Of a DNA stretch of 64,000 nucleotides, positions 14,678 through 61,436 are shown one piece after another. This DNA comes from a bacterium. Its GTDB lineage: Bacteria; UBP15; UBA6099. A model generated the notes under the pieces. It had not been told where the DNA came from and did no database searches. It saw only the letters and a list, made by a program, of their open reading frames with translations. Each line of letters begins with the position of its first letter. The stretch's first letter is position 1. The position numbers and the translations under genes were made by a program. The stretch covers positions 16,424 through 80,423 of the forward strand of contig JAKQPS010000120.1 of NCBI GenBank assembly GCA_029564595.1, given 5' to 3'.

Positions 14678-15541
14678 TCATTGGTAGTCATGAAAATATT
14701 GATGCATTCTTTCCCTAATACTTATGCATTGCTGACACAAACCATCCGCTTGTTTTCCATCAACTTCAACTATGGCTGCTCCTGATAAAAGTATTAATGT
14801 CATCAAATCGAGCGTGTTCTTTATCGCACGGATATGCATTCTTGGAATGGGGTCTATATTCACCAGTCGAACATCTCCGCTTTCATAGATAAACAAATCA
14901 TCCGGCCCTCTTTTGCCATGTGTGATCATGCAGAAATCACGATACGATTTTTTATATTCATTTCTGAAGTGGCCAGAATTGTGCTTGGCATCGATTCTAT
15001 CGCATTCTTGTTGATAATTTAATTGATTCCCGAGCGCTTTTACTCTTTCTTTGCTGCTGGAAGTTAAATCTGCAGATTCAATTTCTCTTTCAAGTCCAGA
15101 CTTCATTTCTCCTAGTTCGTTCAGGTAGTCAGCATAATCTTTAGAGTAATATTCGTAGATTTTTTTGTGTTCATTTATCTCATTTAGTCGAAAACCAAAT
15201 GCCGCTTCTATTGGCTCATCTTTTAATATTAGAATTCGTATCCAACACTCCCATAATGTTCGAATTATTATGTATGCGGAATCAGGATATCCTGACAAAG
15301 ATATTTTTAACGCAGCAACACAATGTCTGAAAGACCTTGCTAGCACAGGAACAAGAACTTCGTCATGAATAATGCTTTTATTCGGATACTCGATTTCTGT
15401 TTTTATTATCCCAAATAGAATCTTTTCGCATTCTTCTAAAAGTTCCAAAACACCCTTAATCTGTATGATGTTCTCTTCGTGCTTGTCATTCATTGCTTTA
15501 TTAAAACGTAACCAACCCACATGTTCGTCAAGAATTTCCAT
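14678..15541 (-). CDS. Hypothetical protein in AT-rich island; possible HEPN-like Rx6H motif
   Basis: Start chosen at ATG 15541 (MEILDEH, AAGGG upstream) rather than the GTG at 15637. Strongly AT-rich codon usage unlike neighbours. RDFCMITH near C-terminus fits R-x(4-6)-H. No family recognised. Confidence 0.5.
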   Translation of the reverse strand: MEILDEHVGWLRFNKAMNDKHEENIIQIKGVLELLEECEKILFGIIKTEIEYPNKSIIHDEVLVPVLARSFRHCVAALKISLSGYPDSAYIIIRTLWECWIRILILKDEPIEAAFGFRLNEINEHKKIYEYYSKDYADYLNELGEMKSGLEREIESADLTSSSKERVKALGNQLNYQQECDRIDAKHNSGHFRNEYKKSYRDFCMITHGKRGPDDLFIYESGDVRLVNIDPIPRMHIRAIKNTLDLMTLILLSGAAIVEVDGKQADGLCQQCISIRERMHQYFHDYQ

Positions 15542-15828
15542 GTCTGAACCCTTTTTATTCAAACATTTACACATAATCAGTTTTCTGCATTTCGTCAGAA
15601 CCATATAATTCTTTCTTTCTATAACCCTCATTGCCACGCGAACACGATTCTTATTATAGCGCCGACAAATCTAATAGTAAGCTTTGCCTAATTACTCGCC
15701 CGTTAAGATTATGTGAAAAATGGCGCTGTAAACGGAGGCGGTTTCATGTTATGATTCCACGAAAGCACAACCGTCGGCGCCGGGGTCTTTTGGCAACCGG
15801 GACGCGGCGGACATCGCGGAGGCGAACC

Positions 15829-25974: not shown

Positions 25975-26095
25975 TGTTCAGAAGCCGATTTTGTGTTGAA
26001 CGCAGTTCAAAAAAATCGGCGCTCCAAGAGTTTTTTTGGGAAGGGGCGCGGGGAAACCGGTTTTTGCAAAAAACGGTTGCCCCGCAAACTCATAG
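25975..26095 (-). repeat. About 120-bp repeat element, copy A (inverted relative to copy B), containing hairpin GCGGGGAAACC...GGTTGCCCCGC with TTTTTGCAAAAAA loop
   Basis: Reverse complement aligns with 28815-28935 at roughly 85 percent identity by eye; explains shared peptide strings in ORFs 25978..26694(-) and 28718..28900(+). Confidence 0.7.
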
Positions 26096-26145: not shown

Positions 26146-28683
26146 ATGGAAACAATGAAGAACAGGGCGGCTGGCGTTGCCGCCGCGATTATATTGTCGC
26201 TGTTTGTCAGTTCGGGCGCCGGCGCGGCCCCGGTGGTAAGGAAAGACAACCGGCTGTTCGCTATGGGCGCGCAGCTTGCCGTGATTTACAACATGGAGAC
26301 CGGGACGTTTGACATCGCGCGGACGAACGGCGAGGCCGTCGCGCGGGGCGCTCGCGCGGAGGTCGTCGTCACGGCGGGCGGCAAGGAATCCACTCTCTCC
26401 ACTCGCGGGGCCGCCAAACTCGGCTGGTTCTTCGAGGACATCGAAGACGCGCACGGCAAAGGAGCCTCCGTCAGCGTCACAGCCACCGGCTCCGGGTCCG
26501 ACCCTGACGTCGTTCACACTTTCCGCGTTTACGACAACCAGCCGTTCATATTGATGAGCGTCGCGGCGCAGAACGTGTCGGACAAACCCATCGGGGTCAG
26601 AAGGCTGTCGCCGATTGTGGTGGACGGAAGCGGCGAATCGGGAGTGTTCCTCGGACTTGACCCGGCGGACGTGGTGGCCCTTGAGAACGGACACAGGCTG
26701 GAGTTTGATTTCTGGGTGAGAAGGACGCGGGCCGCCGACGGGTCTGACAGCAACTGGAGCGTCGCGCTGTACGACGAGAAATCAGGACGCGCTCTGGTCG
26801 GCGGGTTCCTGTCGCAGCGCGCGGCTTTCGGCTCGGTGTCCACCGGCGGCGGCGCGGTCGAGCCTGCTTTGGACGCGCGCACCGGCAGGCGCGGACTGGG
26901 CCTGTTCCACGCCCGCTCCTCGTTCTCCCCCGCCCGCAGAGTCGGCCCGTACTCCGCGCTCGAGTCCGACGCCTTTTTTATCATGGGCGCTTGGGACGCC
27001 CCTCTCGGCGCGCTGGACGTTTTCGCGCGCGCTTCAGCCGTGGAAAACGGCGTCCCCGCTTCACTCCTCCGCCCCGTGCCGACTTTCTGGGACACTTGGT
27101 ACTCAAAATATTCAACAGACATAAATGAAAAGGTCATTCTGGATAACCTCGCCGCCGCCTCCGAAAAGCTAGCCCCGTTCGGTCTCAACGCGTTCCACAT
27201 CGACGGCGGATGGGAAAGAAAAAGAGGCGACTGGGAGCCGAATGAAAAATTCCCCGGAGGGATGAAGGCGCTGGCGGACGCGATCCGCGCGCGCGGGCTG
27301 ACTCCCTCGATATGGATCGCTCCTTTTTCGGCTGCCGCCGATTCCCCCGTCTGCCGCGACAACCCCGGCTGGTTCCTCGACCCGGACGTCATCGGCTCAG
27401 CCATCATACCGTCCAACGAGCGCGCGCTCGACATCTCCAACCCGGACGCCCTCGCTTGGATGAGCGGGACGATTTCCCGCTTGGTCCATGAATGGGGCTT
27501 CGGGATAATTAAAGTCGACTTCACCTACTATTCCCTTCTGGGAAGGAGCTACGCGGCGAAGGGCAGGACGCGCGCGGAGATATTCAGGGAAGCGTTTCGC
27601 GCCATCCGCGACGCCGCCGGGCCTGACGTTTACATACTCGCCGTCGGCGTGCCCGTCGGCATCCACGCAGGTCTGGTGGACGGCATGAGAACCGGGCTGG
27701 ACACCGCCCCGCGCATCGGAGAGGAAAAAGGTTACGCCGCGCAGGGGTTCAAACCCGCTTTCTCCTCTATGATCCGGCGGCAGTTCCTCAACAACGTCCT
27801 CTGGCACAATGACCCGGACGTCATCTACACCGGGTCGGACGAAACAGCGAAAAGGTGGGGAGAAGCCCCGCTGCCGAAGGACGCCCTGATAGCGTGGGCG
27901 AGCGCCGTCGCGCTCTCCGGCCAGATGCTTGAAATCGCCGACCCGCCCGCCGACATGACTCCCGACGCTCTGGCAATCGCCCGCGCCGTTCTACCCGTCT
28001 ATTCCAAAGGAGCGCGTCCTCTCGACCTTTTTACTAAAGACTACCCCGAAATCCTCTCCCTCCGGCTCGACGCCCCGGACTCCCCGCGCCACATCGTCGG
28101 CATTTTCAACTGGGGCGAAAACGATGACAACGGCGCGACAATATCAGCCGAAACCCGCCTCGTTCACCTGCCGTTCTCCGCTCTCGGCCTCTCTCCCAAC
28201 GCCCAGTGCCATGTTTTTGATTTCTGGAACGGCAAATATCTCGGAAATCCGAAATTCGGCCACGCCGTCCGGCTGGCCCCCCACTCCGTTCAGGTGGCGG
28301 CGGTCGTCGAGACTCTAGACAGGCCTCAGTTCATCGCCTCCAACCGCCACGTAACGATGGGCGCAACAGACATCCGCTCCGTCTCTTGGGACGAAGCCGC
28401 GCTCGAACTGCGCGGCTCTCAGGACTCCGTCGCCGGATTCGATTACGCCCTGACATTCCACACGCCTGAGCCTTACCAGTTTGACAGCGCCGAAGTCGCC
28501 GGCTCCCCGGCGGCCGCGGAGCTTTCGCCTGAAGGCAGAGTGATAACGGTGAAGTTTTCCCCCGCCGAATCCGGAAACACGAATTGGATTCTAAAATTTA
28601 AAAAAACCGGCCCTCCCGCCCCGCCTGCCCCTGACCCCCAGAACAATCAGAAAAACCAGAAAGACAAAAACAAAAAGAAATAA
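26146..28683 (+). CDS. Secreted alpha-galactosidase-like glycoside hydrolase (GH36/melibiase-like, tentative)
   Basis: 845 aa; signal peptide; TIM-barrel-like core with HIDGGWE and IIKVDF motifs resembling alpha-galactosidase catalytic regions; Pro/Lys-rich tail. Confidence 0.65.
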   Translation: METMKNRAAGVAAAIILSLFVSSGAGAAPVVRKDNRLFAMGAQLAVIYNMETGTFDIARTNGEAVARGARAEVVVTAGGKESTLSTRGAAKLGWFFEDIEDAHGKGASVSVTATGSGSDPDVVHTFRVYDNQPFILMSVAAQNVSDKPIGVRRLSPIVVDGSGESGVFLGLDPADVVALENGHRLEFDFWVRRTRAADGSDSNWSVALYDEKSGRALVGGFLSQRAAFGSVSTGGGAVEPALDARTGRRGLGLFHARSSFSPARRVGPYSALESDAFFIMGAWDAPLGALDVFARASAVENGVPASLLRPVPTFWDTWYSKYSTDINEKVILDNLAAASEKLAPFGLNAFHIDGGWERKRGDWEPNEKFPGGMKALADAIRARGLTPSIWIAPFSAAADSPVCRDNPGWFLDPDVIGSAIIPSNERALDISNPDALAWMSGTISRLVHEWGFGIIKVDFTYYSLLGRSYAAKGRTRAEIFREAFRAIRDAAGPDVYILAVGVPVGIHAGLVDGMRTGLDTAPRIGEEKGYAAQGFKPAFSSMIRRQFLNNVLWHNDPDVIYTGSDETAKRWGEAPLPKDALIAWASAVALSGQMLEIADPPADMTPDALAIARAVLPVYSKGARPLDLFTKDYPEILSLRLDAPDSPRHIVGIFNWGENDDNGATISAETRLVHLPFSALGLSPNAQCHVFDFWNGKYLGNPKFGHAVRLAPHSVQVAAVVETLDRPQFIASNRHVTMGATDIRSVSWDEAALELRGSQDSVAGFDYALTFHTPEPYQFDSAEVAGSPAAAELSPEGRVITVKFSPAESGNTNWILKFKKTGPPAPPAPDPQNNQKNQKDKNKKK

Positions 28684-28814: not shown

Positions 28815-28935
28815 GTATGTGTGCGGGGAAACCATTTTTTGCAAAAATAGGTTTCCCCGCGCCCCTTCCAAAAAAACTCCCGGACGCCGCTTTTCGCTGA
28901 ACTCCGTTCAACGCAAAAACCGGCTTCTTTCCATA
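28815..28935 (+). repeat. About 120-bp repeat element, copy B, with hairpin GCGGGGAAACC-ATTTTTTGCAAAAATA-GGTTTCCCCGC
   Basis: Direct alignment to reverse complement of 25975-26095; together they flank the glycoside hydrolase gene in inverted orientation. Confidence 0.7.
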
Positions 28936-29190: not shown

Positions 29191-30027
29191 ATGAAAACCA
29201 AGATAATAACATTGTCGTCTGATGTTGTTGAAAAGGCTGATTTGCTTGAATATGAGAAAATGATTTTAGATAACAAAAACATAAGTGAGCACAATGCATC
29301 CAAATTCTTTGCCAAGTTTCCAAAGTTTCTTTCAATAGGCGGCTATAAAGAATTTGCAAGAGAAATAGTATTATCTACACCTCAAAATGAACAGATGTAT
29401 CGTGTGGATTTTTGTAGGAAGCGGTACGGCACATTGTACTGGGACATAGTTGAACTTAAAAGACCCGGGATTCAGGCATTGGTAAAGAAAGGAAAACATT
29501 GGCATTTTTCTGATGCGGTGCAGAAAGGGATAGATCAATCATATGATTACAGAAATTTGATGCATGATAAAACAAATATGGAATTAACAGAGAATAAAAC
29601 GGGAATTAGAATTTACAGACCCAAGATATTGCTAATTGCTGGCAGAAAAGATAACGATATCGGGGAAGATGAATTGATTGATTTGATAGATAAATACAAC
29701 CATTTTGAGTTTTTGACTTATGACGATCTTTTTAATAGTCATACAGAACACTATAAATCAACACTGATTGTTGTCCCCGTGTTCGAAGGCGATGACATAC
29801 CGATAGAAGATTCTGGGGTTCAACTTAAAAGACATATTCAAGAAATGCTAGTTGTGTTGACAAATAAGGAAAGACGTGTTCTCGAATTAAGGTTTGGATT
29901 GATTGACGGAATACCGCGTGATTGCGAAACGATAGCAGAATCAATGAATGAAAATCCAAGCAATATAAGAAAGATTGAATCAAAAGCTTTACGCAAGCTT
30001 AGGTTTCCTCCAACTACCAGACTTTAA
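29191..30027 (+). CDS. Two-domain protein: N-terminal Shedu/DUF4263-like PD-(D/E)xK nuclease-like domain fused to C-terminal sigma-70 region-4 HTH
   Basis: 278 aa, AT-rich codons, GGAGG before ATG. N-terminal FFAKFPKFLSIG...RVDFCRKRYGTLYWDIVELKRPG...QKGIDQSYDY fits D...E-x-K...Q nuclease signature; C-terminal LTNKERRVLELRFGLIDGIPRDCETIAESMNENPSNIRKIESKALRKLR is a near-textbook sigma-70 region 4.2. Confidence 0.6.
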   Translation: MKTKIITLSSDVVEKADLLEYEKMILDNKNISEHNASKFFAKFPKFLSIGGYKEFAREIVLSTPQNEQMYRVDFCRKRYGTLYWDIVELKRPGIQALVKKGKHWHFSDAVQKGIDQSYDYRNLMHDKTNMELTENKTGIRIYRPKILLIAGRKDNDIGEDELIDLIDKYNHFEFLTYDDLFNSHTEHYKSTLIVVPVFEGDDIPIEDSGVQLKRHIQEMLVVLTNKERRVLELRFGLIDGIPRDCETIAESMNENPSNIRKIESKALRKLRFPPTTRL

Positions 30028-30077
30028 GAAGTTCTTGGAAAGAAACAATTAGAGTGAATCCGAGATTGTTGTCTGTA

Positions 30078-31610
30078 TTATCGCCGGGCAGGCGATTTCT
30101 TGTCGTAAAATAGTTGCACTACTTTTTCCATTCGGGAAATTTCATTATCCGAAAGAGCCTCGAAATGGCTTGCTCGTTTCCGCCCTGAGAGTCTGCCATT
30201 GTTTTGCAGACAAAAGCGGATGAAAATGTCGATTTGCCTGTCGGGCATATCCACAATCTCCTGTATAGCTTTCTTGGTTTCATCGTAATTTGCTAGGAAT
30301 AACAATTCACCCGCCAGTTCAGTATCAATAGTCTTCTCAATGAACAGAAACAGCGCTTCTGCTTGCGGAGTCATATCAATATAGCGGTACCATTTAACCG
30401 TATCATTATGGACGGTCATACGGCCATCTTCATCAAGAGAGTATTCCACTAATGGCATTAGACGCTTTGAAAACGATTCCAAAGAAGCATCATAGTCGGC
30501 GGGATTCTTCAACATGGATGCCGACACCGGGAACATGATGCCTTCGGGTGTAAAACCGCGGCGAGCAAGAATGTTATGGATCAGAAACCGGTGAATTCTA
30601 CCATTGCCATCCTCGAACGGATGCAGAAAAACAAATCCATATGAAACGACGGCGGCGTGAATCACGGCGGGAACATTGCCCTCGTCCATGAACTTGAAGG
30701 AAATCTCTAAGCCTTCCATAAGGTCAGGCAGATTTTCAGGTTTTGGACATGCGAAGTGTATCTTTTCATTTTGCCAAGCGACCGACTCCCCCACATAATT
30801 CTGTGTGCGCCGGTAGTCGGAATCACGGAACCGCGCATCGACAATGCGATTCTGAAGCTCTATCAAACTCTTTTTATCATAAAAATCTTTTTGCTCCGCC
30901 AGTTGAAGCAGAGAAACAAATCTTTCCGTCTTATTTGAAGTGGGATTGATGTGTTCTATCTCGAAGGAAGATTTAGTTTCTTTGGCGTAGAGATAACCAA
31001 GAGCGCGCTTTAGCATTTCCGGAGGATAGGCTGATACAACTTGGCGGCATCTATCGGGAAGGTTTGTTTTTTCGAAGTCGCGAAGGATATCTGTGCGACG
31101 AACCGAAGGACAGAACTGGTGATTTCCCAATAAATTATCATTGATTCGTTGGCGACGGACTATGCGGGCTGGAGAAACCGTATAGTATTCTGATGATTCT
31201 AGCAGATCGACATAGTTGCCCCTCTTCAAGTCGGCTAACGGGAGTTTTTTGCCTGTGAGAAACTCGTATAGGAACCATAGTCGCCTTACGTACTTGCCAC
31301 TAGGTTTGGACTGCGCATATTCGAGAAAATCTTTTTCTTCTATTTCTTGAAATAAACTGGCTAGTATCGCAAGGTTCGTGCCGTCATACTTAAGCGCGAA
31401 TTCAAGATGATCTCCCAGCATATCCCCGGGCCAATACTTAAGCGGAAAAACTTCCTCAATCACGCCGCCGGAAGAATCAACTTGATGTATTCCGGAGTTA
31501 ATGACAAAGGAAATATGCCAATTTGGGATGACATCAAGGTCGTACCGCTCGACAAGCGCCGCATATCCTGCGGGTCTGCGGGTCGATTCGTCTTTGTCTT
31601 TTTCAGACAT
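30078..31610 (-). CDS. Fic family protein (AMPylation/phosphocholination-type Fic/Doc enzyme)
   Basis: Start at ATG 31610 (MSEKDKDES) behind GGAGG; canonical Fic motif HPFEDGNGRIHR; SFEIEH segment about 100 aa upstream could be an inhibitory-helix-like motif. ORF-track start 31664 lacks RBS. Confidence 0.85.
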   Translation of the reverse strand: MSEKDKDESTRRPAGYAALVERYDLDVIPNWHISFVINSGIHQVDSSGGVIEEVFPLKYWPGDMLGDHLEFALKYDGTNLAILASLFQEIEEKDFLEYAQSKPSGKYVRRLWFLYEFLTGKKLPLADLKRGNYVDLLESSEYYTVSPARIVRRQRINDNLLGNHQFCPSVRRTDILRDFEKTNLPDRCRQVVSAYPPEMLKRALGYLYAKETKSSFEIEHINPTSNKTERFVSLLQLAEQKDFYDKKSLIELQNRIVDARFRDSDYRRTQNYVGESVAWQNEKIHFACPKPENLPDLMEGLEISFKFMDEGNVPAVIHAAVVSYGFVFLHPFEDGNGRIHRFLIHNILARRGFTPEGIMFPVSASMLKNPADYDASLESFSKRLMPLVEYSLDEDGRMTVHNDTVKWYRYIDMTPQAEALFLFIEKTIDTELAGELLFLANYDETKKAIQEIVDMPDRQIDIFIRFCLQNNGRLSGRKRASHFEALSDNEISRMEKVVQLFYDKKSPARR

Positions 31611-31619
31611 GACTTCCTC

Positions 31620-31811
31620 CAGAAAAACGCTTACAACACGAGAATTATAGTTATATTTTAGCATGTGGCAAGAAAAACAGTTACGGCGGCAAATGCTGTA
31701 AGCTTCTTAGTCTGACAAGAAAAACGCTTACAAGGCAAGAAAAACGCTTACATAACAGCCTGCGACAAGAAAAACGCTTACAACGCGGCCTGTGGCAAGA
31801 AAAACAGTTAT
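31620..31811 (+). repeat. Array of six direct repeats CAAGAAAAAC(G/A)(C/G)TTAC (iteron-like) upstream of the Fic gene
   Basis: Copies at 31620, 31669, 31717, 31736, 31766, 31796 read directly; first copy degenerate; spacings 19-48 bp. Confidence 0.8.
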
Positions 31812-52842: not shown

Positions 52843-52916
52843 GGCTAGGTAGCTCAGCTGGTCAGAGCACACGGCTCATACCCGTGGCGTCGCCGGTTCA
52901 AATCCGGCCCTAGCTA
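52843..52916 (+). tRNA. tRNA with anticodon CAT (Met; initiator, elongator or Ile-lysidine not resolved)
   Basis: Hand-folded cloverleaf: acceptor GGCTAGG/CCTAGCT (G1-U72), D-arm GCTC-AGCTGGTCA-GAGC, anticodon arm CACGG-CTCATAC-CCGTG with three G-C pairs next to the loop, T-arm GCCGG-TTCAAAT-CCGGC; CCA not encoded. Confidence 0.85.
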
Positions 52917-52937
52917 CTATCATAAATACAAATAACC

Positions 52938-53041: not shown

Positions 53042-53489
53042 CGCTGAACGTCTAATCAGCCCCCCCCGCTTTCCCGGAGCGTCCTCTGCCGAAGGAGACA
53101 CAGACAATCCGGCCTGTCGCCCGTCGCGCATATCGCGAATTTTCAATCGCTCAAGCATAGGTTCATAGATTCGGCTCGTCTTCATGCGACTCTCCATATC
53201 ACCCTGCGGCAGACTTCTAACATGGACGTACAAATATCCATACAAGGTTTAGCCGCGATCAAGTATAACTCCGGAAGACAGGTTCGTGTGTCTGCCGCCA
53301 CAATGCTGAGCGCCCCCCTATTCGACGCAAGATAACGCGTCGCGCGCAACGAGCGGCGCAGTCGCGACAAATTTGTGTTGATGTTGTCATCGTTTTCCTG
53401 TAAACTCGGAATACGGTTCCGGAATGGCGTTTGACCGAATGAACGCCGCGCCGGTAGCTCCGTAAATCATTGAAAGGGCGAATATTTGA

Positions 53490-55193
53490 ATGATTCTGCT
53501 TAATCCGAAAAAATATGATCCGAAAAGGCTCGACCCGGCATCCGCCGAACTGATGAAGAAAACCATCGCGTTCTTCGAGGCAAAGGGCAAAAGAAAACTG
53601 AAACAGGACGACCACGAGAGAGTGTGGTACGCGGACTTTCTGGATTTCGTGAAGCAGGAAAAAGTGTTTTCGAAACTGCTTACGCCGTCCGGTTATTCCG
53701 ACGGCGACCCTGACACCCGGTGGGACAACAACCGGAACTGCGACTTCAACGAGATAACCGCCTTCTACGCCCTGCACTACTGGTACACGTGGCAGGTGAG
53801 CATTCTCGGCCTCGGCCCGATATGGATGGGCAAAAACGAAGAGGTGAAAAAGAAGACGGCGGAGCTGTTGCGCGAGGGCGGCATCTTCGCGTTCGGACTG
53901 TCCGAAAAAGAGCACGGCGCGGATATCTATTCCACGGATATGTCGCTCGCCCCGCAGGCCGACGGCACATACATTGCCAATGGGAGAAAGTATTACATCG
54001 GCAACGGAAACAAGGCGGCGCTGGTGTCCACTCTCGGCAAGATGAAGGACAGCGGCGACTTCGTGTTCTTCGTCGTCGGATCGACTCACGGCAAGTACGA
54101 ATGCGTGCGCAATCTGGTGAACACTCAGTCTTACGTCGCCGAGTACGCTCTGAACGACTACCCGATATATGAATACGACATCCTCACGAAGGGACAGGAG
54201 GCGTGGGACTCCGCGCTGAACACCATAAACGTTGGGAAATACAATCTCGGATGGGCGTCGATCGGCATATGCACGCACTCGATTTACGAGGCGATAGACC
54301 ACGCGTCGAACAGGGTGCTGTACGGCAAACACGTGACGGACTTCCCGCACATCAGGCAGCTAATGACTGACGCGTACTGCCGATTGGTCGCGATGAAACT
54401 GTTCGCGCTGCGCGCGTCTGACTACATGAGGGCGGCGGGGCCGGACGACAGGCGCTATCTGCTGTACAACCCGATGGTGAAGATGAAAGTGACCACGCAG
54501 GGCGAGGAAGTCATCAACCTGTTGTGGGACGTGATAGCGGCGCGCGGGTTCGAGAAGGAAACGTATTTCGAGATGGCGGCGCGAGACATCCGCGCGCTCC
54601 CCAAACTCGAAGGAACTGTTCATGTGAACATGGCCCTCATCATCAAATTCATGCGCAACTATTTCTTCATGCCCGGCAAATTCCCCGAACTAGGCGTGAA
54701 AACAGACCCGGCGAACGACGACTTCCTGTTCAATCAGGGACCGACGCGCGGACTGGGCAAAATCCAGTTCCACGACTACAACATCGCGTACAACAGCGTT
54801 GACTTGCCGAACGTCAACCTCTTCAAAGAGCAAATAAACGTCCTCAAGGAATTCCTCATGACCGCCACCCCCACAGAGGAGCAGGCCAAGGACATCGATT
54901 TCCTGCTCGTGCTCGGCGAACTATTCACGCTTGTGGCATACGGGCAGCTTATCATCGAGAACTCCGCGATAATGAATGTCGAGGACGCGCTGCTCGACCA
55001 GATATTCGACTTCTTCGTCCGCGACTTCTCCAAATTCGCGCTGCAACTTTACTCGAAGACGGGCAGCACGGAGAAGCAGATGGGCCTGTGCCTGAAGATG
55101 ATCCGCAAACCTGTCCCGAACCCGGAAAGATTCAACAAGATATGGAACGAGCACGTCTTCGCCCTCAAAGGCGCTTACACCATGAGCGACTGA
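53490..55193 (+). CDS. Acyl-CoA dehydrogenase family protein
   Basis: 567 aa; overall three-domain ACAD-like layout (tentative family-level call from pattern, not a motif match). Confidence 0.65.
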   Translation: MILLNPKKYDPKRLDPASAELMKKTIAFFEAKGKRKLKQDDHERVWYADFLDFVKQEKVFSKLLTPSGYSDGDPDTRWDNNRNCDFNEITAFYALHYWYTWQVSILGLGPIWMGKNEEVKKKTAELLREGGIFAFGLSEKEHGADIYSTDMSLAPQADGTYIANGRKYYIGNGNKAALVSTLGKMKDSGDFVFFVVGSTHGKYECVRNLVNTQSYVAEYALNDYPIYEYDILTKGQEAWDSALNTINVGKYNLGWASIGICTHSIYEAIDHASNRVLYGKHVTDFPHIRQLMTDAYCRLVAMKLFALRASDYMRAAGPDDRRYLLYNPMVKMKVTTQGEEVINLLWDVIAARGFEKETYFEMAARDIRALPKLEGTVHVNMALIIKFMRNYFFMPGKFPELGVKTDPANDDFLFNQGPTRGLGKIQFHDYNIAYNSVDLPNVNLFKEQINVLKEFLMTATPTEEQAKDIDFLLVLGELFTLVAYGQLIIENSAIMNVEDALLDQIFDFFVRDFSKFALQLYSKTGSTEKQMGLCLKMIRKPVPNPERFNKIWNEHVFALKGAYTMSD

Positions 55194-55238
55194 GTAGGCA
55201 AACTAATGTTGACTATGCGTTGATTCTATTGTTATTTT

Positions 55239-55280
55239 GCGGGGAAGCATTTTTATGAAAAGGCTTCCCCGCTTTTATTT
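55239..55280. terminator. Bidirectional terminator hairpin GCGGGGAAGC / GCTTCCCCGC followed by T-rich tract
   Basis: Read directly between convergent genes. Confidence 0.65.
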
Positions 55281-55457
55281 AGAAGCTTCTATTATCGACT
55301 ATTCAGTAAAGTTTCGTTCTTCGCAATATCCGCGCATATCCATACTTGCAATATTCACACGCTTTTATTGGAGCCAATGTTTATTGCTCCGGCCAACCCC
55401 GCACAACCGAACCTATCTCTCTTCAATTATTTCTCTATTTCGAAAACAGCTCGTTTT

Positions 55458-57365
55458 TCAAAGTTTTTTTGATTCCTTTTTCGCCAGCCGCAAAGACATC
55501 ATAATGACAACAATGACGCCTCCTATTAGCGCAATCCAAATAATAATTTCTTTTCCCAAAGGTCGGTCGTCCTTTTCATCGCATGCGTCTCCTATTCCAT
55601 CTTTGTCTTTATCAGGTTGCACGGATTTGCCATATTGCTGTCGCTTGGGATTGCTGACTAATGGACAATTGTCAAGCGCATTTAGAACGCCGTCATTATC
55701 CCAGTCTTCGCATGCGTCTCCAACGCCGTCATTGTTCCTGTCCTTCTGATCATTGTTAGGAATGTCCGGGCAATTATCATTGACATCCAACACGCCATCA
55801 TTGTCGCTATCCTCGCAAATATCGCCGATGTCGTTAAGATTAACATCGCGCTGATCAGGATTTTTCATGCTAGGACAGTTGTCGCAAGCATCTCCGACAC
55901 CGTCATTGTCGGAATCGCGCTGATCAGGATTCTTTTTCTTCACGCAATTATCCTTGAAGTTCTGCGCATCATCATTGTCGTCGTCATCGCAAGCGTCTCC
56001 CACGCCATCGTTGTTTTTGTCTTCTTGTTGAGGATTATAACCATGAATACAGTTGTCGCATGCGTCGCCAATGCCGTCCCGGTCGGTGTCCCGCTGATCT
56101 GCATTCGGCTTGTTTCGGCAGTTGTCAACCGCTGTCGGAATGCCATCATTGTCCATGTCTTCGCAAGCGTCGCCGACGCCGTTGCGGTCTTTGTCCTGCT
56201 GTCTCGGATTCCTAACAGATGGACAATTATCCTTGCTGTTTATGATGCCGTCAAAATCATGATCGTCGCAAACATCGCCAATTCCATTTGAATCTGAGTC
56301 CATTTGGTCAGGATTTGCCATATCCAGACAGTTGTCACAAGCATCGCCAACCCCATCCCGGTCAACGTCCTCTTGGCTCGCATTAGGAACATCCGGACAG
56401 TTATCACATGCGTCTCCTACGCCGTCGCGATCAGAATCCTTCTGATCTGGATTGCTATTAAGAGGACAATTATCATATTTTGTTATCTTATCTCGATCCG
56501 GGTCTTCATTATATTCTGGATTCGGCTTCTCTCTTCCGAGCTTCACCTGCGGCATGTTCTTCCAGACGCGTAAACCGCGCGTATTAGATTTCGTATTTGA
56601 GCTTTTAATGTTCCCGTAATATATCTGATACTTTTTTCCCTCTTTTATATCGAACACAGCGCCAATTTCGGACGGCCCGAATATTCGCATTTCTCTTATT
56701 GCGATACCGCCGCCATGTTCAAATGCGAAACGGATAAATCGCTTTATAACAGGCGGATATGGGATTTCAAGATTCAAAGGCTCGTCCGCATCGTATTTCA
56801 CATTCTGCAAATACGTCCATTGGACGCCGTCATTGCTCCCGCTGATAATCAGTTTCTTAAATGTGAATGCATCGTCATGCAAATGTATCTCAGCAAACCC
56901 TGTGAGCGTAGGCTGGCCGAAATCAAAAGTCAGGGTCGTATGCCTAGGGTCTTTTTCAGGATCGCTCTGGTAGTAACTGCCCTCTTTGCCGGAAACATCT
57001 CCGTCTGTTAAATTGCGCGACCCGTACGAGGCGCCGCGGAATGGGGACCGCTCTGAAGTCGCTTTTATTCCTGATGCTCTTGAGGCGACATCCATTCTGT
57101 CATTCTTTACCAGCATATACGGTATTTCCTTTCCTGATTCGGCGATTCGCAAATCCCGCTGGTCCGGCAGCATTTTCTGAAGCGCTTCTTCGTCGAGGCG
57201 CAACAACGCCTCGCCTTGCGCGCTTCCCGTCGACACGTCTCGCATATATGGATACGCGGAAAACGTTTCAGCCTCGCCCGCCTTTGCGGTAATGGCAATG
57301 ATCGACACAAGCGCAAAGATATACATACTTAACCTTGTCACTGCCTTCTCTATATCAGTCGTCAT
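55458..57365 (-). CDS. Thrombospondin type-3 repeat protein with N-terminal discoidin-like region and C-terminal TM anchor
   Basis: Start at ATG 57365 (GAGGAG upstream) overlapping the upstream stop (ATGA); more than ten tandem Ca-binding-type repeats (DxDxDGxGDxCDNCP); C-terminal hydrophobic [17 protein letters not shown]; lower GC than flanks. Confidence 0.75.
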
Positions 57366-59749
57366 AACAACTCCTCGATTTGTTTTCTGTATCTGTAATA
57401 TAAAAACGATGCGACAAGAAGGATCACTCCAACTCCGAACAAAGATACAACGCGATACGCCAAGTCTAGGCTTGCCATATCGCGGATAAGCGCCTTTGCC
57501 AACGAGAGCACTAAAAGACTTATGCCGACATAACGGATATATCGCGATTTTGAAACAAAACCAATGATTAAAACACATACAGCTTCCACTGCCCATGCGA
57601 TGGTAATCCAATGTCCGGAGAACACACATGCCAGCATATATGTCAGGAATATGGTTGAGCATGAGGCGTAGACGACGCCAGCTTGTTTTATTTGTTCAAA
57701 AGGCGAAGAGTATTCTCCTTTGTACAGCCGATATGCCACAATGTAATAAATCAATAATTGTGGCAAAAGCGTTTGCATCGCGATATTGCTGTTCTCTGCG
57801 ACAGAATACAAGGTTCGCATTGATAAAATCAGATGAATCGTGAATGCGGCGGCATATAACCAGTAAAGACGTCTGTTGCGCGCCACTGCCAACAGAGCGA
57901 TTCCCAGCAGACAAACGGCAAACACACTGTTTTCAAGTTTTGCGAAGACAAGATTCAATTGCATTGTCGCAAGACCCGCGCCCGCAATCGCATAAACATA
58001 TGTTTCTAGAAATTTCATGTCATATCTCTGAATCTTCATAAGCCTGTCGCTTAAAACTGCTAAAATGAAGAAGCTTGCCGCCGACACGACCAACATGACT
58101 GCTCGCAAACCTTGTTCGCCGATAAATATGAAAACGCTGCATAGAGCGGCAACCGCCACAAAACGACTGAGCCAGCGCAGGAGTTTATTATCCAAAATTA
58201 CTGAGAGATAGAATAGCATTGCGGATTCCACAGCCCAAGAAAGCGGCAACCAATTCTTTGTTAATTGAACCGGAATCGCGAGCGTGACGAAAACAGTAGC
58301 AAGAGCCAAATAGGTTTGTGACAGAGGTGTAAGTTTTTTTGACATGGCGACACGACAGAGACAAACACACAGCACGGCCATGCTGAGGGTAAACAACCCC
58401 GCGTATTCATGATATTCAGAGAAGATTTTGTGGAACAGAAATCCGAAAAAACACAACTTATTCATAACAACAATGACGACTTCCTCTAAAATCAAACCGG
58501 TTTTCGATAATTGCATCAGAAACGCACACACAGTGAATATCGTCAACAGGCATGCTAAGAATAACAGAGCCATGGCTGTTTGTCCTTCGACACTATTATT
58601 CCAAAGAAGAAACGCAATATAATTTGCCACGACCGCTCCGATGCCAAGCCCAGCTATGGAATAACGCAGGATTAGGAAAACGAGAGTCAGGTCAATAGCC
58701 AAGTAATAAATCAACGACAGGCTGCCGCTTTCCATGGTGAAAAACGGAATAAATAGATTCAATATAGCGATGGCATAGATAACACATCGACTTTCTAACG
58801 GTAAAAGCTTCTTTTCAACATTCATAGCGATGACGCGAGCGCCAAACTGCTTTTGCGCAAAAACCAAACCCATAAAAAGCCCGAAATAGCAAAACAAAAA
58901 CAACAAATTCATTAAAAGCTCGCTCGGATTATTATTGAGCCAGTTGATATGAATTATATAGGTTGCCGCTAGTCCCGCGACTCCAATTCGAAACCATCCC
59001 TTCCTGCGCGCAAGGTAAATCAAACCAACGGCAAGCACGACATTGTATAAAAGAGTAAATACGTTTATCGCGCCGCAGAGATATGCCGTTGCATATCCCA
59101 ATAGAAACGCTTCGCCGGCAAGCAGCGCGGAATCAAGCTTTATAGAATATATAATCGCGCTAGCAACGACTATAGTCAGCAATATTATGTCCATGACAAG
59201 CGAAATATGCGTGAACTCCGCGTAGAAATGATGCGCCGCATAAAGAGTGAAATATAGAAGAGCGAAACCGCCTCCTATCAATGTTCTGTCATAACCCTTG
59301 TACTGTTTTTTCGTTTTAAGAATATTCCCGGTTAATATAAATATCAAAGCGAGCGCGATGCCTCCAACGATGCGCGTTGTCGGCCCGATCCATTGATTGT
59401 CAATTGCGTATTTCACAAAAAAAGAGAACGCAACGACGACCAGAATAATTCCCGCGAGCCCGAACCACTTCATGCCGATTTCAGCCTCGCGGGACGTCTT
59501 TGGCGCAGGAGGCACATCCGGCGAAGACAAGGGAGAGTCGGGCGGTTCATATAGCTCATTAGCGGGCTTTTTTGCCTCTTGCATATCCGCCGCAACGACA
59601 TCTTTGATTCTATTAATATCCGTATCAGTTTCATGCGCAACTCTCTCCCGCACTGCCTGCTCCAAATGATCAAATCGTATCCTCAACTCATCAATCTGCG
59701 TTTTGATCATTAGCATTTCTTTCTTGATCTCTTCAGGCATTTCCGCCAT
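57362..59749 (-). CDS. Large polytopic membrane protein, DUF2339-like, with N-terminal coiled coil
   Basis: 795 aa; N-terminal helical segment then about 20 hydrophobic segments; lower-GC codon usage; family assignment from memory. Confidence 0.65.
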
Positions 59750-60425
59750 AGAAGCAACCCCTTATTGATTCACAAGTTTTCAATGTGTCTTTGCCATATG
59801 ACACACTGATTTCTGACAGTTGGTTGTGTTGTTGTCAATTATACAAGCGATAGCATTTATTTGAAAGGGGTTATAACCTTACTAATTTCAATATTATTTA
59901 AATGGCAACCTTGAGTTCGAAATAGGAACGCGCTCATCGCATTCTTTGCATCAACTATTTTGTCGGGCTTACTAAATGTCCACCATCAATAATGCCGCAT
60001 ATTTCAAGTTGAATTCCGGCTTAGCAATACGTCCCTCTATTGTAACGCGTAAATTCTTCTCGTAAAAGAATCATCGCCGCATCGCGAAGCTTGTGGGTTA
60101 AAAAACTAATCACAAACGAAATATACGCGATTCACAATCTAATACAGCCTGAAGATGTGTCAGTTTTGGGGATTCTTGCGGCAAGCCTTCTTCGAGTCTT
60201 CTTTTTTTATGTCGGGTTTGACTCTTGAGACGGGGTTGCGCGTCCAGAATTTCCGGATGGTTTTCCACGCGGGTTTTATTTTCTTCTTTTTAGCCATTTG
60301 GCGTTGTCCATAACGTCGTTCTTTGCAAATCGTCTTGATATTTATATGAATTCTAACGATGGATTAGCGTTTATTCGCGATGAACGATGAAGGCCGCGAA
60401 TTTTAATTAAGCGTCGCTATCCCCG

Positions 60426-60608
60426 TCAGTTATTCGTATTGCCGTCGTCGCCCTGCCCCGTTTCTTTTTTCAGCATCGCCACGTCGAACGCGTGGTCGAG
60501 ACATTTGACTTCGCCGCCGCCGGATGAGACGGAGAAGCGTTTGTTGCATGTGGCGCGGTACGCGCAGTTCGAGCAAAGTTTGACGGTCGGCTGTTCTGTT
60601 TGGCTCAT
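60426..60608 (-). CDS. Small cysteine-containing protein (possible zinc-binding), hypothetical
   Basis: 60 aa with C-x2-C-x5-C and a fourth Cys; 27 bp downstream of lepB on the same strand. Confidence 0.35.
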   Translation of the reverse strand: MSQTEQPTVKLCSNCAYRATCNKRFSVSSGGGEVKCLDHAFDVAMLKKETGQGDDGNTNN

Positions 60609-60635
60609 TGTGTTTTTCTCCTTGCGACGGCCGGT

Positions 60636-61436
60636 TCAGCGGAGAATGCCTATGCGGCCGGGAGGCCAGAAGCGGAAAAACGCTTTGGCCTGCACGTTCT
60701 TTTTCGGGAGGAACCCCCATTTGTGTCCGTCGTGGCTGTTGCACCTATTGTCGCCAAGCGCCAGAAGCATGCCTTCGGGGACTGTCCTTATCGGAAAATC
60801 GTCATAGTTTGGGCAGACGCGCAGTCCGTTCTTCAGATATGGCTCGTCGAGCGGTTTGCCGTTTAAGAAGATTTTTCCTCCGAACACGCCCACCGCGTCG
60901 CCTTCGACGGCTACGGCGCGCTTAAGGTAGGAATAATCGAAGTCTTTGTCCTTGTTGAAGCGGGTTGAGAGGGTTCCGGGGGCGAGAGGCTGCGTTGTCC
61001 GGCGCACTTCGGGAGGAGGGATGAAAGCGATTATGTCGCCGCGCGCCGGGTCGGACAGCCTGTATGTGATTCTGCTGCCGAAGACGCGGTCGCCCGGCTC
61101 TATGGTCGGTTCCATCGAGCCTGTGGGGATGACGTACGCCTGAACGAGAAAAGTTTTTATCAACAGCGCGAGGACAAGAGCGACGGCGATGGATTTCGCC
61201 CAGTCCCAAATTTCTTCTGCAGCGCGGCGGGCGCCGCTTTTTTTGAGTTCCGCCGGAGCTTCCGCAGCCGAACAGTCACACGGGATGCAATCCGGCGTTT
61301 CTAGTCCGGTCACAACGTCTGAGGCAGAAAGTGCGGATGAAGTTTCAACGCCGTCGCGACTCATTGTCCGGGCGTCTCCGGTTTCTCTTTCCGGCAACTT
61401 GGGAATCGCGGGGTTGTCCTGTTTTTCGAAATCCAT
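60636..61436 (-). CDS. lepB: Signal peptidase I
   Basis: S26 family boxes: SMEPT (catalytic Ser), RGDIIAF, and GDNRCNSHDGHKWG (catalytic Lys region); N-terminal extension suggests true start may be internal. Confidence 0.85.
   Translation of the reverse strand: MDFEKQDNPAIPKLPERETGDARTMSRDGVETSSALSASDVVTGLETPDCIPCDCSAAEAPAELKKSGARRAAEEIWDWAKSIAVALVLALLIKTFLVQAYVIPTGSMEPTIEPGDRVFGSRITYRLSDPARGDIIAFIPPPEVRRTTQPLAPGTLSTRFNKDKDFDYSYLKRAVAVEGDAVGVFGGKIFLNGKPLDEPYLKNGLRVCPNYDDFPIRTVPEGMLLALGDNRCNSHDGHKWGFLPKKNVQAKAFFRFWPPGRIGILR

Follow-up and report, generated by a model that had tools for sequence, protein, structure and literature searches.

A Small Acquired Islet Encoding a DUF2339 Protein and a Stalked Partner with Homology to the Arc3A/Arc3B Pair

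Introduction

Two adjacent genes on the minus strand of a 64,000-nucleotide stretch of DNA from an uncultured bacterium (contig JAKQPS010000120.1, positions 16,424 to 80,423; the whole stretch is called the window here) differ sharply in base composition from the genes around them. What do they encode, where did they come from, and what might they do for the cell? An earlier note, made from the sequence alone, had read them as an acquired cell-surface module consisting of a DUF2339-like membrane protein and a thrombospondin-repeat protein with a transmembrane (TM) helix in place of the usual OmpA domain. We call them gene A (57362–59749, minus strand, 795 amino acids) and gene B (55458–57365, minus strand, 635 amino acids). 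By sequence comparison both are homologous to the Arc3 pair of Pseudomonas aeruginosa: A is a polytopic inner-membrane protein of the DUF2339 (Arc3A) family, and B is an Arc3B-family protein, related to DUF3999, of a type that carries a stalk of thrombospondin type 3 (TSP3) repeats. We consider it reasonably probable that the islet containing them is an acquired two-gene envelope module, homologous to Arc3A/Arc3B, with the proposed role of countering phospholipases.

Of the non-immunity defences known in Pseudomonas against lipase toxins from rival bacteria, Arc3 is the main one. In P. aeruginosa it comprises the adjacent genes arc3A (PA5114) and arc3B (PA5113) and is one of three “antagonism resistance clusters” under Gac/Rsm control (Ting et al., eLife 2022, PMC8926400). 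The Methods of that paper define Arc3A homologues by Pfam 10101 (DUF2339) and Arc3B homologues by Pfam 13163 (DUF3999); its main text and Figure 3 legend interchange the two names in several sentences, and we adopt the Methods definition. The two proteins co-immunoprecipitate, and no other gene is as important as Arc3A in surviving Tle3, a type VI secretion system (T6SS) phospholipase, the defence being Tle3-specific (PMC8926400). When Arc3A is lost, lysophosphatidylethanolamine (LPE) and monolysocardiolipin (MLCL) build up, and the defect is complemented by divergent DUF2339 proteins of other species (four heterologous homologues; PMC8926400). A later, independent preprint reports that arc3A protects against lipase effectors of Vibrio cholerae and Acinetobacter baylyi. 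The LplT/Aas system addresses the same proposed problem, the removal of lysophospholipids after phospholipase attack, but has no sequence or fold relationship to the Arc3 pair; the aas gene often neighbours arc3, and in P. aeruginosa Arc3A acts independently of Aas (PMC8926400).

Results

Homology of the Two Genes

Is gene A an Arc3A? It matches DUF2339 (PF10101) over positions 3–658 of the 659-position profile (178.4 bits, cut-off 33.6, E = 3.8e-52), which bears out the DUF2339 call of the earlier note, and all 190 homologues found are PF10101 proteins. Because the match is full-length, A belongs to the Arc3A family by the family's own definition. A resembles PA5114 in matching the whole of PF10101, in its very large size and unusually dense TM helices, and in having an Arc3B-family gene directly 3′ of it in the same orientation; both appear to be accessory loci of the defence type. 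The two differ in that A has approximately 26 helices in its 795 residues, whereas approximately 35 TM segments are predicted for PA5114, and in the long cytoplasmic helix at the N-terminus of A. The setting differs as well: the window pair comes from an unclassified anaerobic-digester lineage, lacks a Gac/Rsm context and has neither estA nor aas as a neighbour.

The AlphaFold model of A, built from a 66-sequence alignment, has a predicted local distance difference test score (pLDDT) of 78 and a predicted template modelling score (pTM) of 0.73. In its secondary structure, residues 6–54 (59588–59734, minus strand) form a long amphipathic helix, coiled-coil-like and predicted to be cytoplasmic, in agreement with the N-terminal coiled coil noted earlier; a disordered linker then reaches residue 86, and pLDDT falls below 50 at residues 44–78. 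From residue 87 to 786 (57392–59491, minus strand), the model and hydropathy give approximately 26 densely packed TM helices, more than the 20 or so counted before, with very short loops (mostly fewer than 8 residues). There are two “W-A-V-E” helices (amino acids 501–513 and 715–727), and in the DUF2339 alignment W505/E508 and E709/W719 are nearly invariant columns. The hhalign comparison of the DUF2339 profile with itself hints at an internal repeat (E of approximately 1e-10), a kind of score that TM composition inflates and on which we do not rely. Taken together, the two helices and this weak repeat signal suggest that A may have arisen by duplication of a multi-helix unit. Comparison of the family profile of A with PDB sequences gave only weak matches, to coiled coils such as keratin and Lpp; the model of A matched none of the solved membrane-protein folds, those of the major facilitator superfamily and of acyltransferases included; and PDB searches found no DUF2339 or DUF3999 structure.

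What is gene B? Its public annotation reads only “thrombospondin type 3 repeat-containing protein.” Sequence and hydropathy indicate a Sec signal peptide at residues 1–30 (57276–57365, minus strand) with an A-K-A/G cleavage motif, the slash marking the cut; the structure model has a helix at residues 4–28, and homologues carry a like signal peptide. The site is of the signal-peptidase-I type, with no lipobox Cys (residues 1–299 contain no Cys at all). A globular head follows at residues 31–292 (56490–57275, minus strand), built of a beta segment with the conserved pattern “Y.Y..V...LD...DLRI..EIPY,” a discoidin/CBM32-like domain, and a last beta segment with “YxIYYGN...NPEY.” Residues 100–224 match Pfam F5_F8_type_C (E = 1.2e-9), in keeping with the discoidin-like region of the earlier description, and the model contains one discoidin domain. 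The stalk occupies residues 298–595 (55581–56474, minus strand). Pfam TSP_3 matches it in 8 stretches (E = 4e-55), it is 38% Asp plus Asn, and it contains approximately 13 DxDxDG-type loops. All 20 Cys of B lie within residues 300–595, grouped in ten “DNC...GD.C” units, each 23 or 35 residues long, and the DNA of the stalk shows direct repeats at 69-, 105- and 174-nucleotide spacing. The TSP3 repeats reported before are real, then, while their number, given as more than ten, comes to 10 disulfide-bounded units or approximately 13 loops. The paired Cys of the stalk fit an oxidising extracytoplasmic compartment. Thrombospondin type 3 repeats bind calcium, and by analogy the stalk of B would do so too. 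The protein ends in a TM anchor at residues 607–625 (55491–55547, minus strand; hydropathy 2.88) and a basic tail, so that the C-terminal helix without an OmpA domain was also described correctly. A 734-amino-acid open reading frame (ORF) was considered for B and set aside: on three metagenome contigs of near-identical sequence, the independently called genes have 635 amino acids, and B homologues start with a signal peptide, as the 635-amino-acid form does.

Is B an Arc3B? We searched 1.84 billion representative proteins exhaustively by phmmer with residues 27–292 of B, and recovered 57 representative clusters only. The nearest 25 or so share its build: a signal peptide, a single discoidin domain, then 1–10 TSP3 units before a C-terminal TM helix. 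They are followed (E = 1e-10 to 1e-4) by proteins of 400–450 amino acids that pass the PF13163 threshold (gathering score 30 bits), for example P0142 (91 bits), P0150 (81 bits), P0145 (58 bits) and P0143 (46 bits). Close relatives of B score 19–23 bits, under the gathering score, and a DUF3999 match at E ≤ 0.01 occurs in 32 of the 58 sequences of the B-head set. When a profile of 27 B-type heads is aligned with one of 18 DUF3999 proteins by hhalign, the probability is 100% (E = 4e-40, 268 columns). The aligned region takes in the signal peptide, the “W.Y.K.I...LD...DLRI..EVPY” stretch, the second of the discoidin-like domains in DUF3999 and the “Y.LYYGN..A..P.YD...LG.E..NP.Y” stretch; the alignment skips DUF3999 columns from approximately 100 to 230, and a secondary match indicates an internal duplication in DUF3999 only. 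The juxtamembrane/TM profiles of the two types align as well (97.5% probability, E = 6e-12). In canonical DUF3999 proteins this end comes no more than approximately 10 residues after “NP.Y,” and the TSP3 stalk of the B type is inserted exactly there.

The likeness of B to Arc3B (PA5113) and DUF3999 proteins extends over a signal peptide, the “DLRI” segment, a discoidin-like domain, the “YYGN”/“NP.Y” segment, a juxtamembrane motif, a single C-terminal TM helix, a basic tail and a position 3′ of a DUF2339 gene. What sets B apart is the 300-residue TSP3 stalk that separates the “NP.Y” motif from the membrane anchor, one discoidin-like domain where DUF3999 has two, and the lack of a lipobox, PA5113 being a predicted outer-membrane lipoprotein. 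Most DUF3999 proteins that we sampled also lack a lipobox, and the lipoprotein anchor of PA5113 may not be a family-wide feature. Judged by these alignments, B is an Arc3B homologue with a different middle, outside Pfam DUF3999 as modelled now.

The earlier comparison of B with TSP3-OmpA proteins gives way to this relationship, which phmmer and hhalign place with the Arc3A (DUF2339)/Arc3B (DUF3999) system. B does share with TSP3-OmpA proteins, and with thrombospondin and COMP, the DxDxDG..D..D calcium-loop repeats with paired Cys. In OmpA-like proteins such repeats form a periplasmic linker. B, however, has no OmpA peptidoglycan-binding domain and no beta-barrel, and its flanking domains are those of Arc3B. 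An OmpA-type identity was tried and rejected: Pfam finds only TSP_3 and F5_F8_type_C in B, and an Omp28-related NCBIfam model gives 169 against 200 bits. Nor does B look like CBM32/F5-8 type C proteins at large, since it has no glycoside hydrolase or clotting factor attached and identities are 14–23%. In PADLOC-DB, no model matches A or B.

Does the pairing hold in other genomes? Our adjacency count rests on nine lineages; a search with a four-sequence alignment led to two genome and four metagenome loci. In eight of the nine, a B-type gene lies directly 3′ of a DUF2339 gene, on the same strand and abutting or overlapping it (the window; L001/L011/L023; L012; L013; L015; L018; L025; L026), with B identity across paired loci going down to 28%. 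Locus L001/L002 has an A homologue, P0002, that is 48% identical and is followed by a 628-amino-acid discoidin-TSP3 gene (L011, L023 and L024 belong to the same lineage); the neighbourhood is wholly different, with GH31, BNR and serpin genes. The distant B-type genes (28–34% identity; L012, L013, L015, L018, L025 and L026) each lie directly 3′ of a DUF2339 gene, often with a 4-nucleotide overlap, and in L017 a canonical DUF3999 gene keeps the same order after DUF2339. From the adjacency in eight of nine lineages we infer that A and B may associate as PA5114 and PA5113 do.

Several of these loci have features of their own. A 252-amino-acid membrane-like ORF lies 3′ of the pair in L001, and the window has no such third gene. 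In L015 (4441–6056), genes for an ABC transporter ATPase and an ABC-2 permease follow the pair on the same strand with short gaps. The L012 pair is on a 4.7-kb contig (DAOUWY010000181.1) assigned to a bin named “Methanosarcinales archaeon”; either archaea have the pair or the contig was misbinned. In the ninth lineage, L016 (3231–4484) encodes P0141, which has one degenerate TSP3 unit and a C-terminal TM helix; the neighbours are SLH-domain/S-layer-type genes, and the protein could be a form that stands alone in another type of envelope.

Origin of the Islet

How did the pair come to lie in this genome? The lower GC content that the earlier note had seen is confirmed (0.43–0.47 over 55–60 kb versus 0.55–0.61 on the flanks), and it extends to synonymous sites. 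GC content at third codon positions (GC3) is 0.481 in A and 0.497 in B, against a mean of 0.732 (standard deviation 0.060) in the 31 other genes of the window, which corresponds to z-scores of −4.2 and −3.9. The codon-usage distance is 0.19 for A and 0.17 for B versus 0.08 ± 0.02 for host genes, and the synonymous codon fractions of the pair are approximately twice as far from the pooled usage of the window as those of any host gene.

The inserted islet spans 55207–60169 (4,963 bp, GC 0.446) and consists of A and B with their own flanking non-coding DNA, including a 420-bp region 5′ of A. It is flanked by genes for a DegP-like protease, signal peptidase I and an acyl-CoA dehydrogenase (ACAD). 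Exact-sequence look-ups assign the flanking genes to an unclassified lineage akin to “bacterium ADurb.Bin236,” and four contigs (L019–L022) come from a sister lineage. Comparison of DnaK homologues assigns the host to no named phylum, the closest named matches being Clostridia at approximately 70% identity. The sister contigs carry DegP, LepB, a 57-amino-acid ORF and ACAD, without A or B; L019 has 75 bp, including a terminator hairpin, in place of the 4,963 bp of the window. By BLASTN, L019 is 92.6% identical to the window up to 60170 and 97% identical from 55206 onward, and for L019 and L021 together the flanks align at 92.6–97% identity with no alignment between 55206 and 60170.

Because sister genomes at 93–97% nucleotide identity show an empty site, we conclude that the pair was acquired, as the earlier note had proposed; the atypical GC3 and codon usage point the same way. 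A deletion in the sister lineage is the formally possible alternative, and insertion is preferred because the codon usage is foreign. That the islet is a small, horizontally acquired insertion is strongly supported. Low GC is not intrinsic to the family, since the L001 pair has a GC3 of 0.69–0.71, equal to that of its neighbours; for the same reason the window copy would have come from a different donor.

At the right edge of the islet lies a GC-rich hairpin, GCGGGGAAGC...GCTTCCCCGC (55239–55272), an inverted repeat that is 93% complementary. It stands between the convergent B and ACAD genes, with a T-run on the ACAD side. The borders of the islet show neither a target-site duplication nor terminal inverted repeats, and no integrase or transposase was found there. 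Synteny of the window with L019 also stops at 53369, left of ACAD and near a tRNA-Met gene (52843–52917); beyond that point L019 has flavodoxin-like and Fe-S genes, and the window has an ABC ATPase gene.

Within the islet, A and B form one transcript with coupled translation. Direct reading of the minus strand verifies the ATGA stop/start overlap reported before (57362–57365): the TGA stop of A is at 57364–57362 and the ATG of B at 57365–57363. A GAGGAG Shine-Dalgarno sequence lies within the 3′ end of A, 7 nucleotides 5′ of the ATG of B, and loci L012 and L013 have an identical 4-nucleotide overlap. The best candidate for a sigma-70-like promoter (TTCAAA-16-TATAAT, 59838–59865, minus strand) lies inside the islet, approximately 90 nucleotides 5′ of the ATG of A; it was found by a consensus scan and agrees with the consensus at 10 of 12 positions as a pattern match only. 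An Rfam search of 55000–60800 had no match, and thus no riboswitch or small RNA in the long upstream spacer.

Could the islet simply be foreign DNA that is hitch-hiking or decaying, without any function at present, the adjacency of its genes being incidental? Its foreign composition would fit, as would the absence of mobility genes and regulators. On the other hand, both ORFs are intact and full-length relative to their homologues, and a Shine-Dalgarno sequence, a promoter-like site and a terminator-like hairpin are present. Three independent metagenome contigs carry A and B at 99% identity, and the adjacency is kept down to 28% identity. We regard passenger DNA as an extremely improbable explanation.

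Location and Proposed Function

On which side of which membrane would B act? A secretin gene two genes away from the pair implies that the host has an outer membrane, and hence that an inner-membrane-anchored B would be periplasmic. Searches with Pfam and NCBIfam and inspection of the sequence found no MYXO-CTERM, OmpA, beta-barrel, lipobox or type IX secretion system signal in B. B has a Sec signal peptide, a C-terminal TM helix and a basic cytoplasmic tail, and no signal that would sort it to the outer membrane or the surface. Its anchor is probably in the inner membrane and its body in the periplasm, and it is probably no surface adhesin; the term “cell-surface module” of the earlier note is not borne out.

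The corresponding alternative is a calcium-dependent surface adhesin or matrix-binding module, in which B would bind glycans outside the cell and A would be unrelated or accessory. B was compared with MtsC, a MYXO-CTERM cohesion protein (NF047638), and this candidate was rejected: B scores 243 against 350 bits, the match involves the repeats only (residues 460–597), and the C-terminus of B is a plain TM helix with a basic tail, with no MYXO-CTERM sorting signal. Besides this repeats-only match and the absence of surface-sorting signals, the neighbouring secretin points to an outer membrane and so to a periplasmic position of the anchored protein. Furthermore, the head, tail and gene order of B are those of Arc3B/DUF3999, and B-like genes are tied to DUF2339 in eight of nine lineages, a tie that an autonomous adhesin would not need. 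We consider the adhesin explanation very unlikely.

How might a periplasmic Arc3 module work here? A would sit in the inner membrane with its approximately 26 tightly packed TM helices and its cytoplasmic N-terminal helix, and would limit the build-up of detergent-like lysophospholipids when a phospholipase A toxin (a T6SS lipase effector, for example) attacks the membrane; this anti-phospholipase function is drawn by analogy with Arc3A. B would be exported via its Sec signal peptide and stay attached to the inner membrane through its C-terminal helix, presenting the discoidin/CBM32-like head on an approximately 300-residue, disulfide-stapled, calcium-binding stalk toward the cell wall or the outer membrane. 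It would probably bind A and act as an auxiliary tether or sensor. The head fold of B is closest to glycan-binding modules, which makes the cell wall, or some other glycan of the envelope, a reasonable target. Factor V/VIII C2 domains, which are related to discoidin, bind phospholipid, and by this relationship a membrane is a conceivable alternative target.

Several points weigh against an Arc3-like defence module. The pair's defensive function is an inference drawn solely from homology. Pairwise assays in P. aeruginosa showed little contribution of Arc3B to defence, and the mechanism of Arc3A was left open between lysolipid sequestration and interference with the lipase (PMC8926400). PF13163 has no match in B at E ≤ 0.1, nor in its head at E ≤ 10; B has no counterpart of the first discoidin-like domain of DUF3999 and none of the N-terminal lipid anchor predicted for PA5113. 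The distant B-like gene of L016, one of nine lineages, has no DUF2339 neighbour. In the window, no aas/lplT, phospholipase or T6SS gene was found near the pair, and the diderm status of the host rests on one neighbouring secretin gene.

Might the pair instead serve general envelope homeostasis, as a tether and not as a defence? A would then be a lipid organiser or scaffold, and B a calcium-stiffened ruler that links the inner membrane with peptidoglycan or with the outer membrane, for lipid turnover, spacing or stress sensing. The spacer-like stalk fits this idea, which we rate as unlikely while taking it seriously. The pair is patchy, absent from sisters that are 93–97% identical, and foreign in codon usage, all of which suits an accessory defence better; the only known phenotypes of the family are defence against lipase effectors; and the P. 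aeruginosa stress assays, on our reading, do not seem to point to a general role (PMC8926400).

The stalk itself deserves attention. Among proteins P0121–P0176 of the B subfamily, TSP3 stalk lengths are not continuous but fall into clusters of approximately 90–135, 178, 235–242 and 305–316 residues, which correspond to 1–4, 6, 8 and 9–10 Cys-pair units. This suggests that the stalk is a spacer whose length matters, with the B of the window in the longest class. One could go further and speculate that TSP3-stalked Arc3B marks an unrecognised mobile branch of Arc3, whose quantised stalk serves as a periplasmic ruler or calcium-sensitive switch that couples the state of the wall or outer membrane, through the CBM32-like head, to Arc3A. 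We think this quite unlikely as it stands; if true, envelope damage or calcium loss would gate the defence.

Other Low-GC Patches in the Window

The islet is not the only low-GC patch in the window. An island at 29191–31664 (GC3 0.33 and 0.46) encodes a 278-amino-acid Shedu-like protein (SduA_C plus sigma-70 region 4) and, convergently, a 528-amino-acid Fic-domain protein that matches the PADLOC candidate family PDC-S24 (E = 5.6e-180). At 14678–15637 (minus strand) there is an isolated gene for a 319-amino-acid DUF5677 protein (GC3 0.33, z = −6.7), with no PADLOC match. A repeat of approximately 110 bp occurs in two copies of 85% identity and opposite orientation (25980–26089 and 28819–28930), and again in L019 (16190–16298). 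In the window it brackets a melibiase-like gene (26146–28683) and abuts the low-GC island at 29 kb. The core of the repeat is a hairpin, GCGGGGAA...TTCCCCGC. The hairpin at the edge of the A/B islet (55239–55272) is similar to it, and a similar one lies at 28823–28860. The similar hairpins could be a shared terminator, a repetitive extragenic palindromic (REP)-like element or a recombination hotspot. The low-GC patches with Shedu-like and PDC-S24/Fic genes fit a genome with several small, separately acquired defence islets.

Discussion

The Arc3 pair is already known; the form of Arc3B with a TSP3 stalk is not described in the searchable literature. The locus does not overturn current understanding, but it does suggest that the Arc3B family is wider than its Pfam model, and that a whole subfamily now labelled “thrombospondin type 3 repeat” belongs to it. 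Because this subfamily falls below the gathering threshold, surveys based on PF13163 would undercount the paired systems.

For the organism, the islet would represent a compact two-gene unit that has entered an uncultured bacterium of anaerobic digesters at an intergenic site, as is expected of a defence trait. For the family, the loss of one discoidin domain and the gain of a variable calcium-binding stalk amount to a natural domain swap, which may mark the parts that Arc3B cannot do without: the N-terminal segment, a single discoidin domain, the “YYGN/NP.Y” stretch and the juxtamembrane/TM anchor. The swap would thereby provide a handle for structure-function work on Arc3B.

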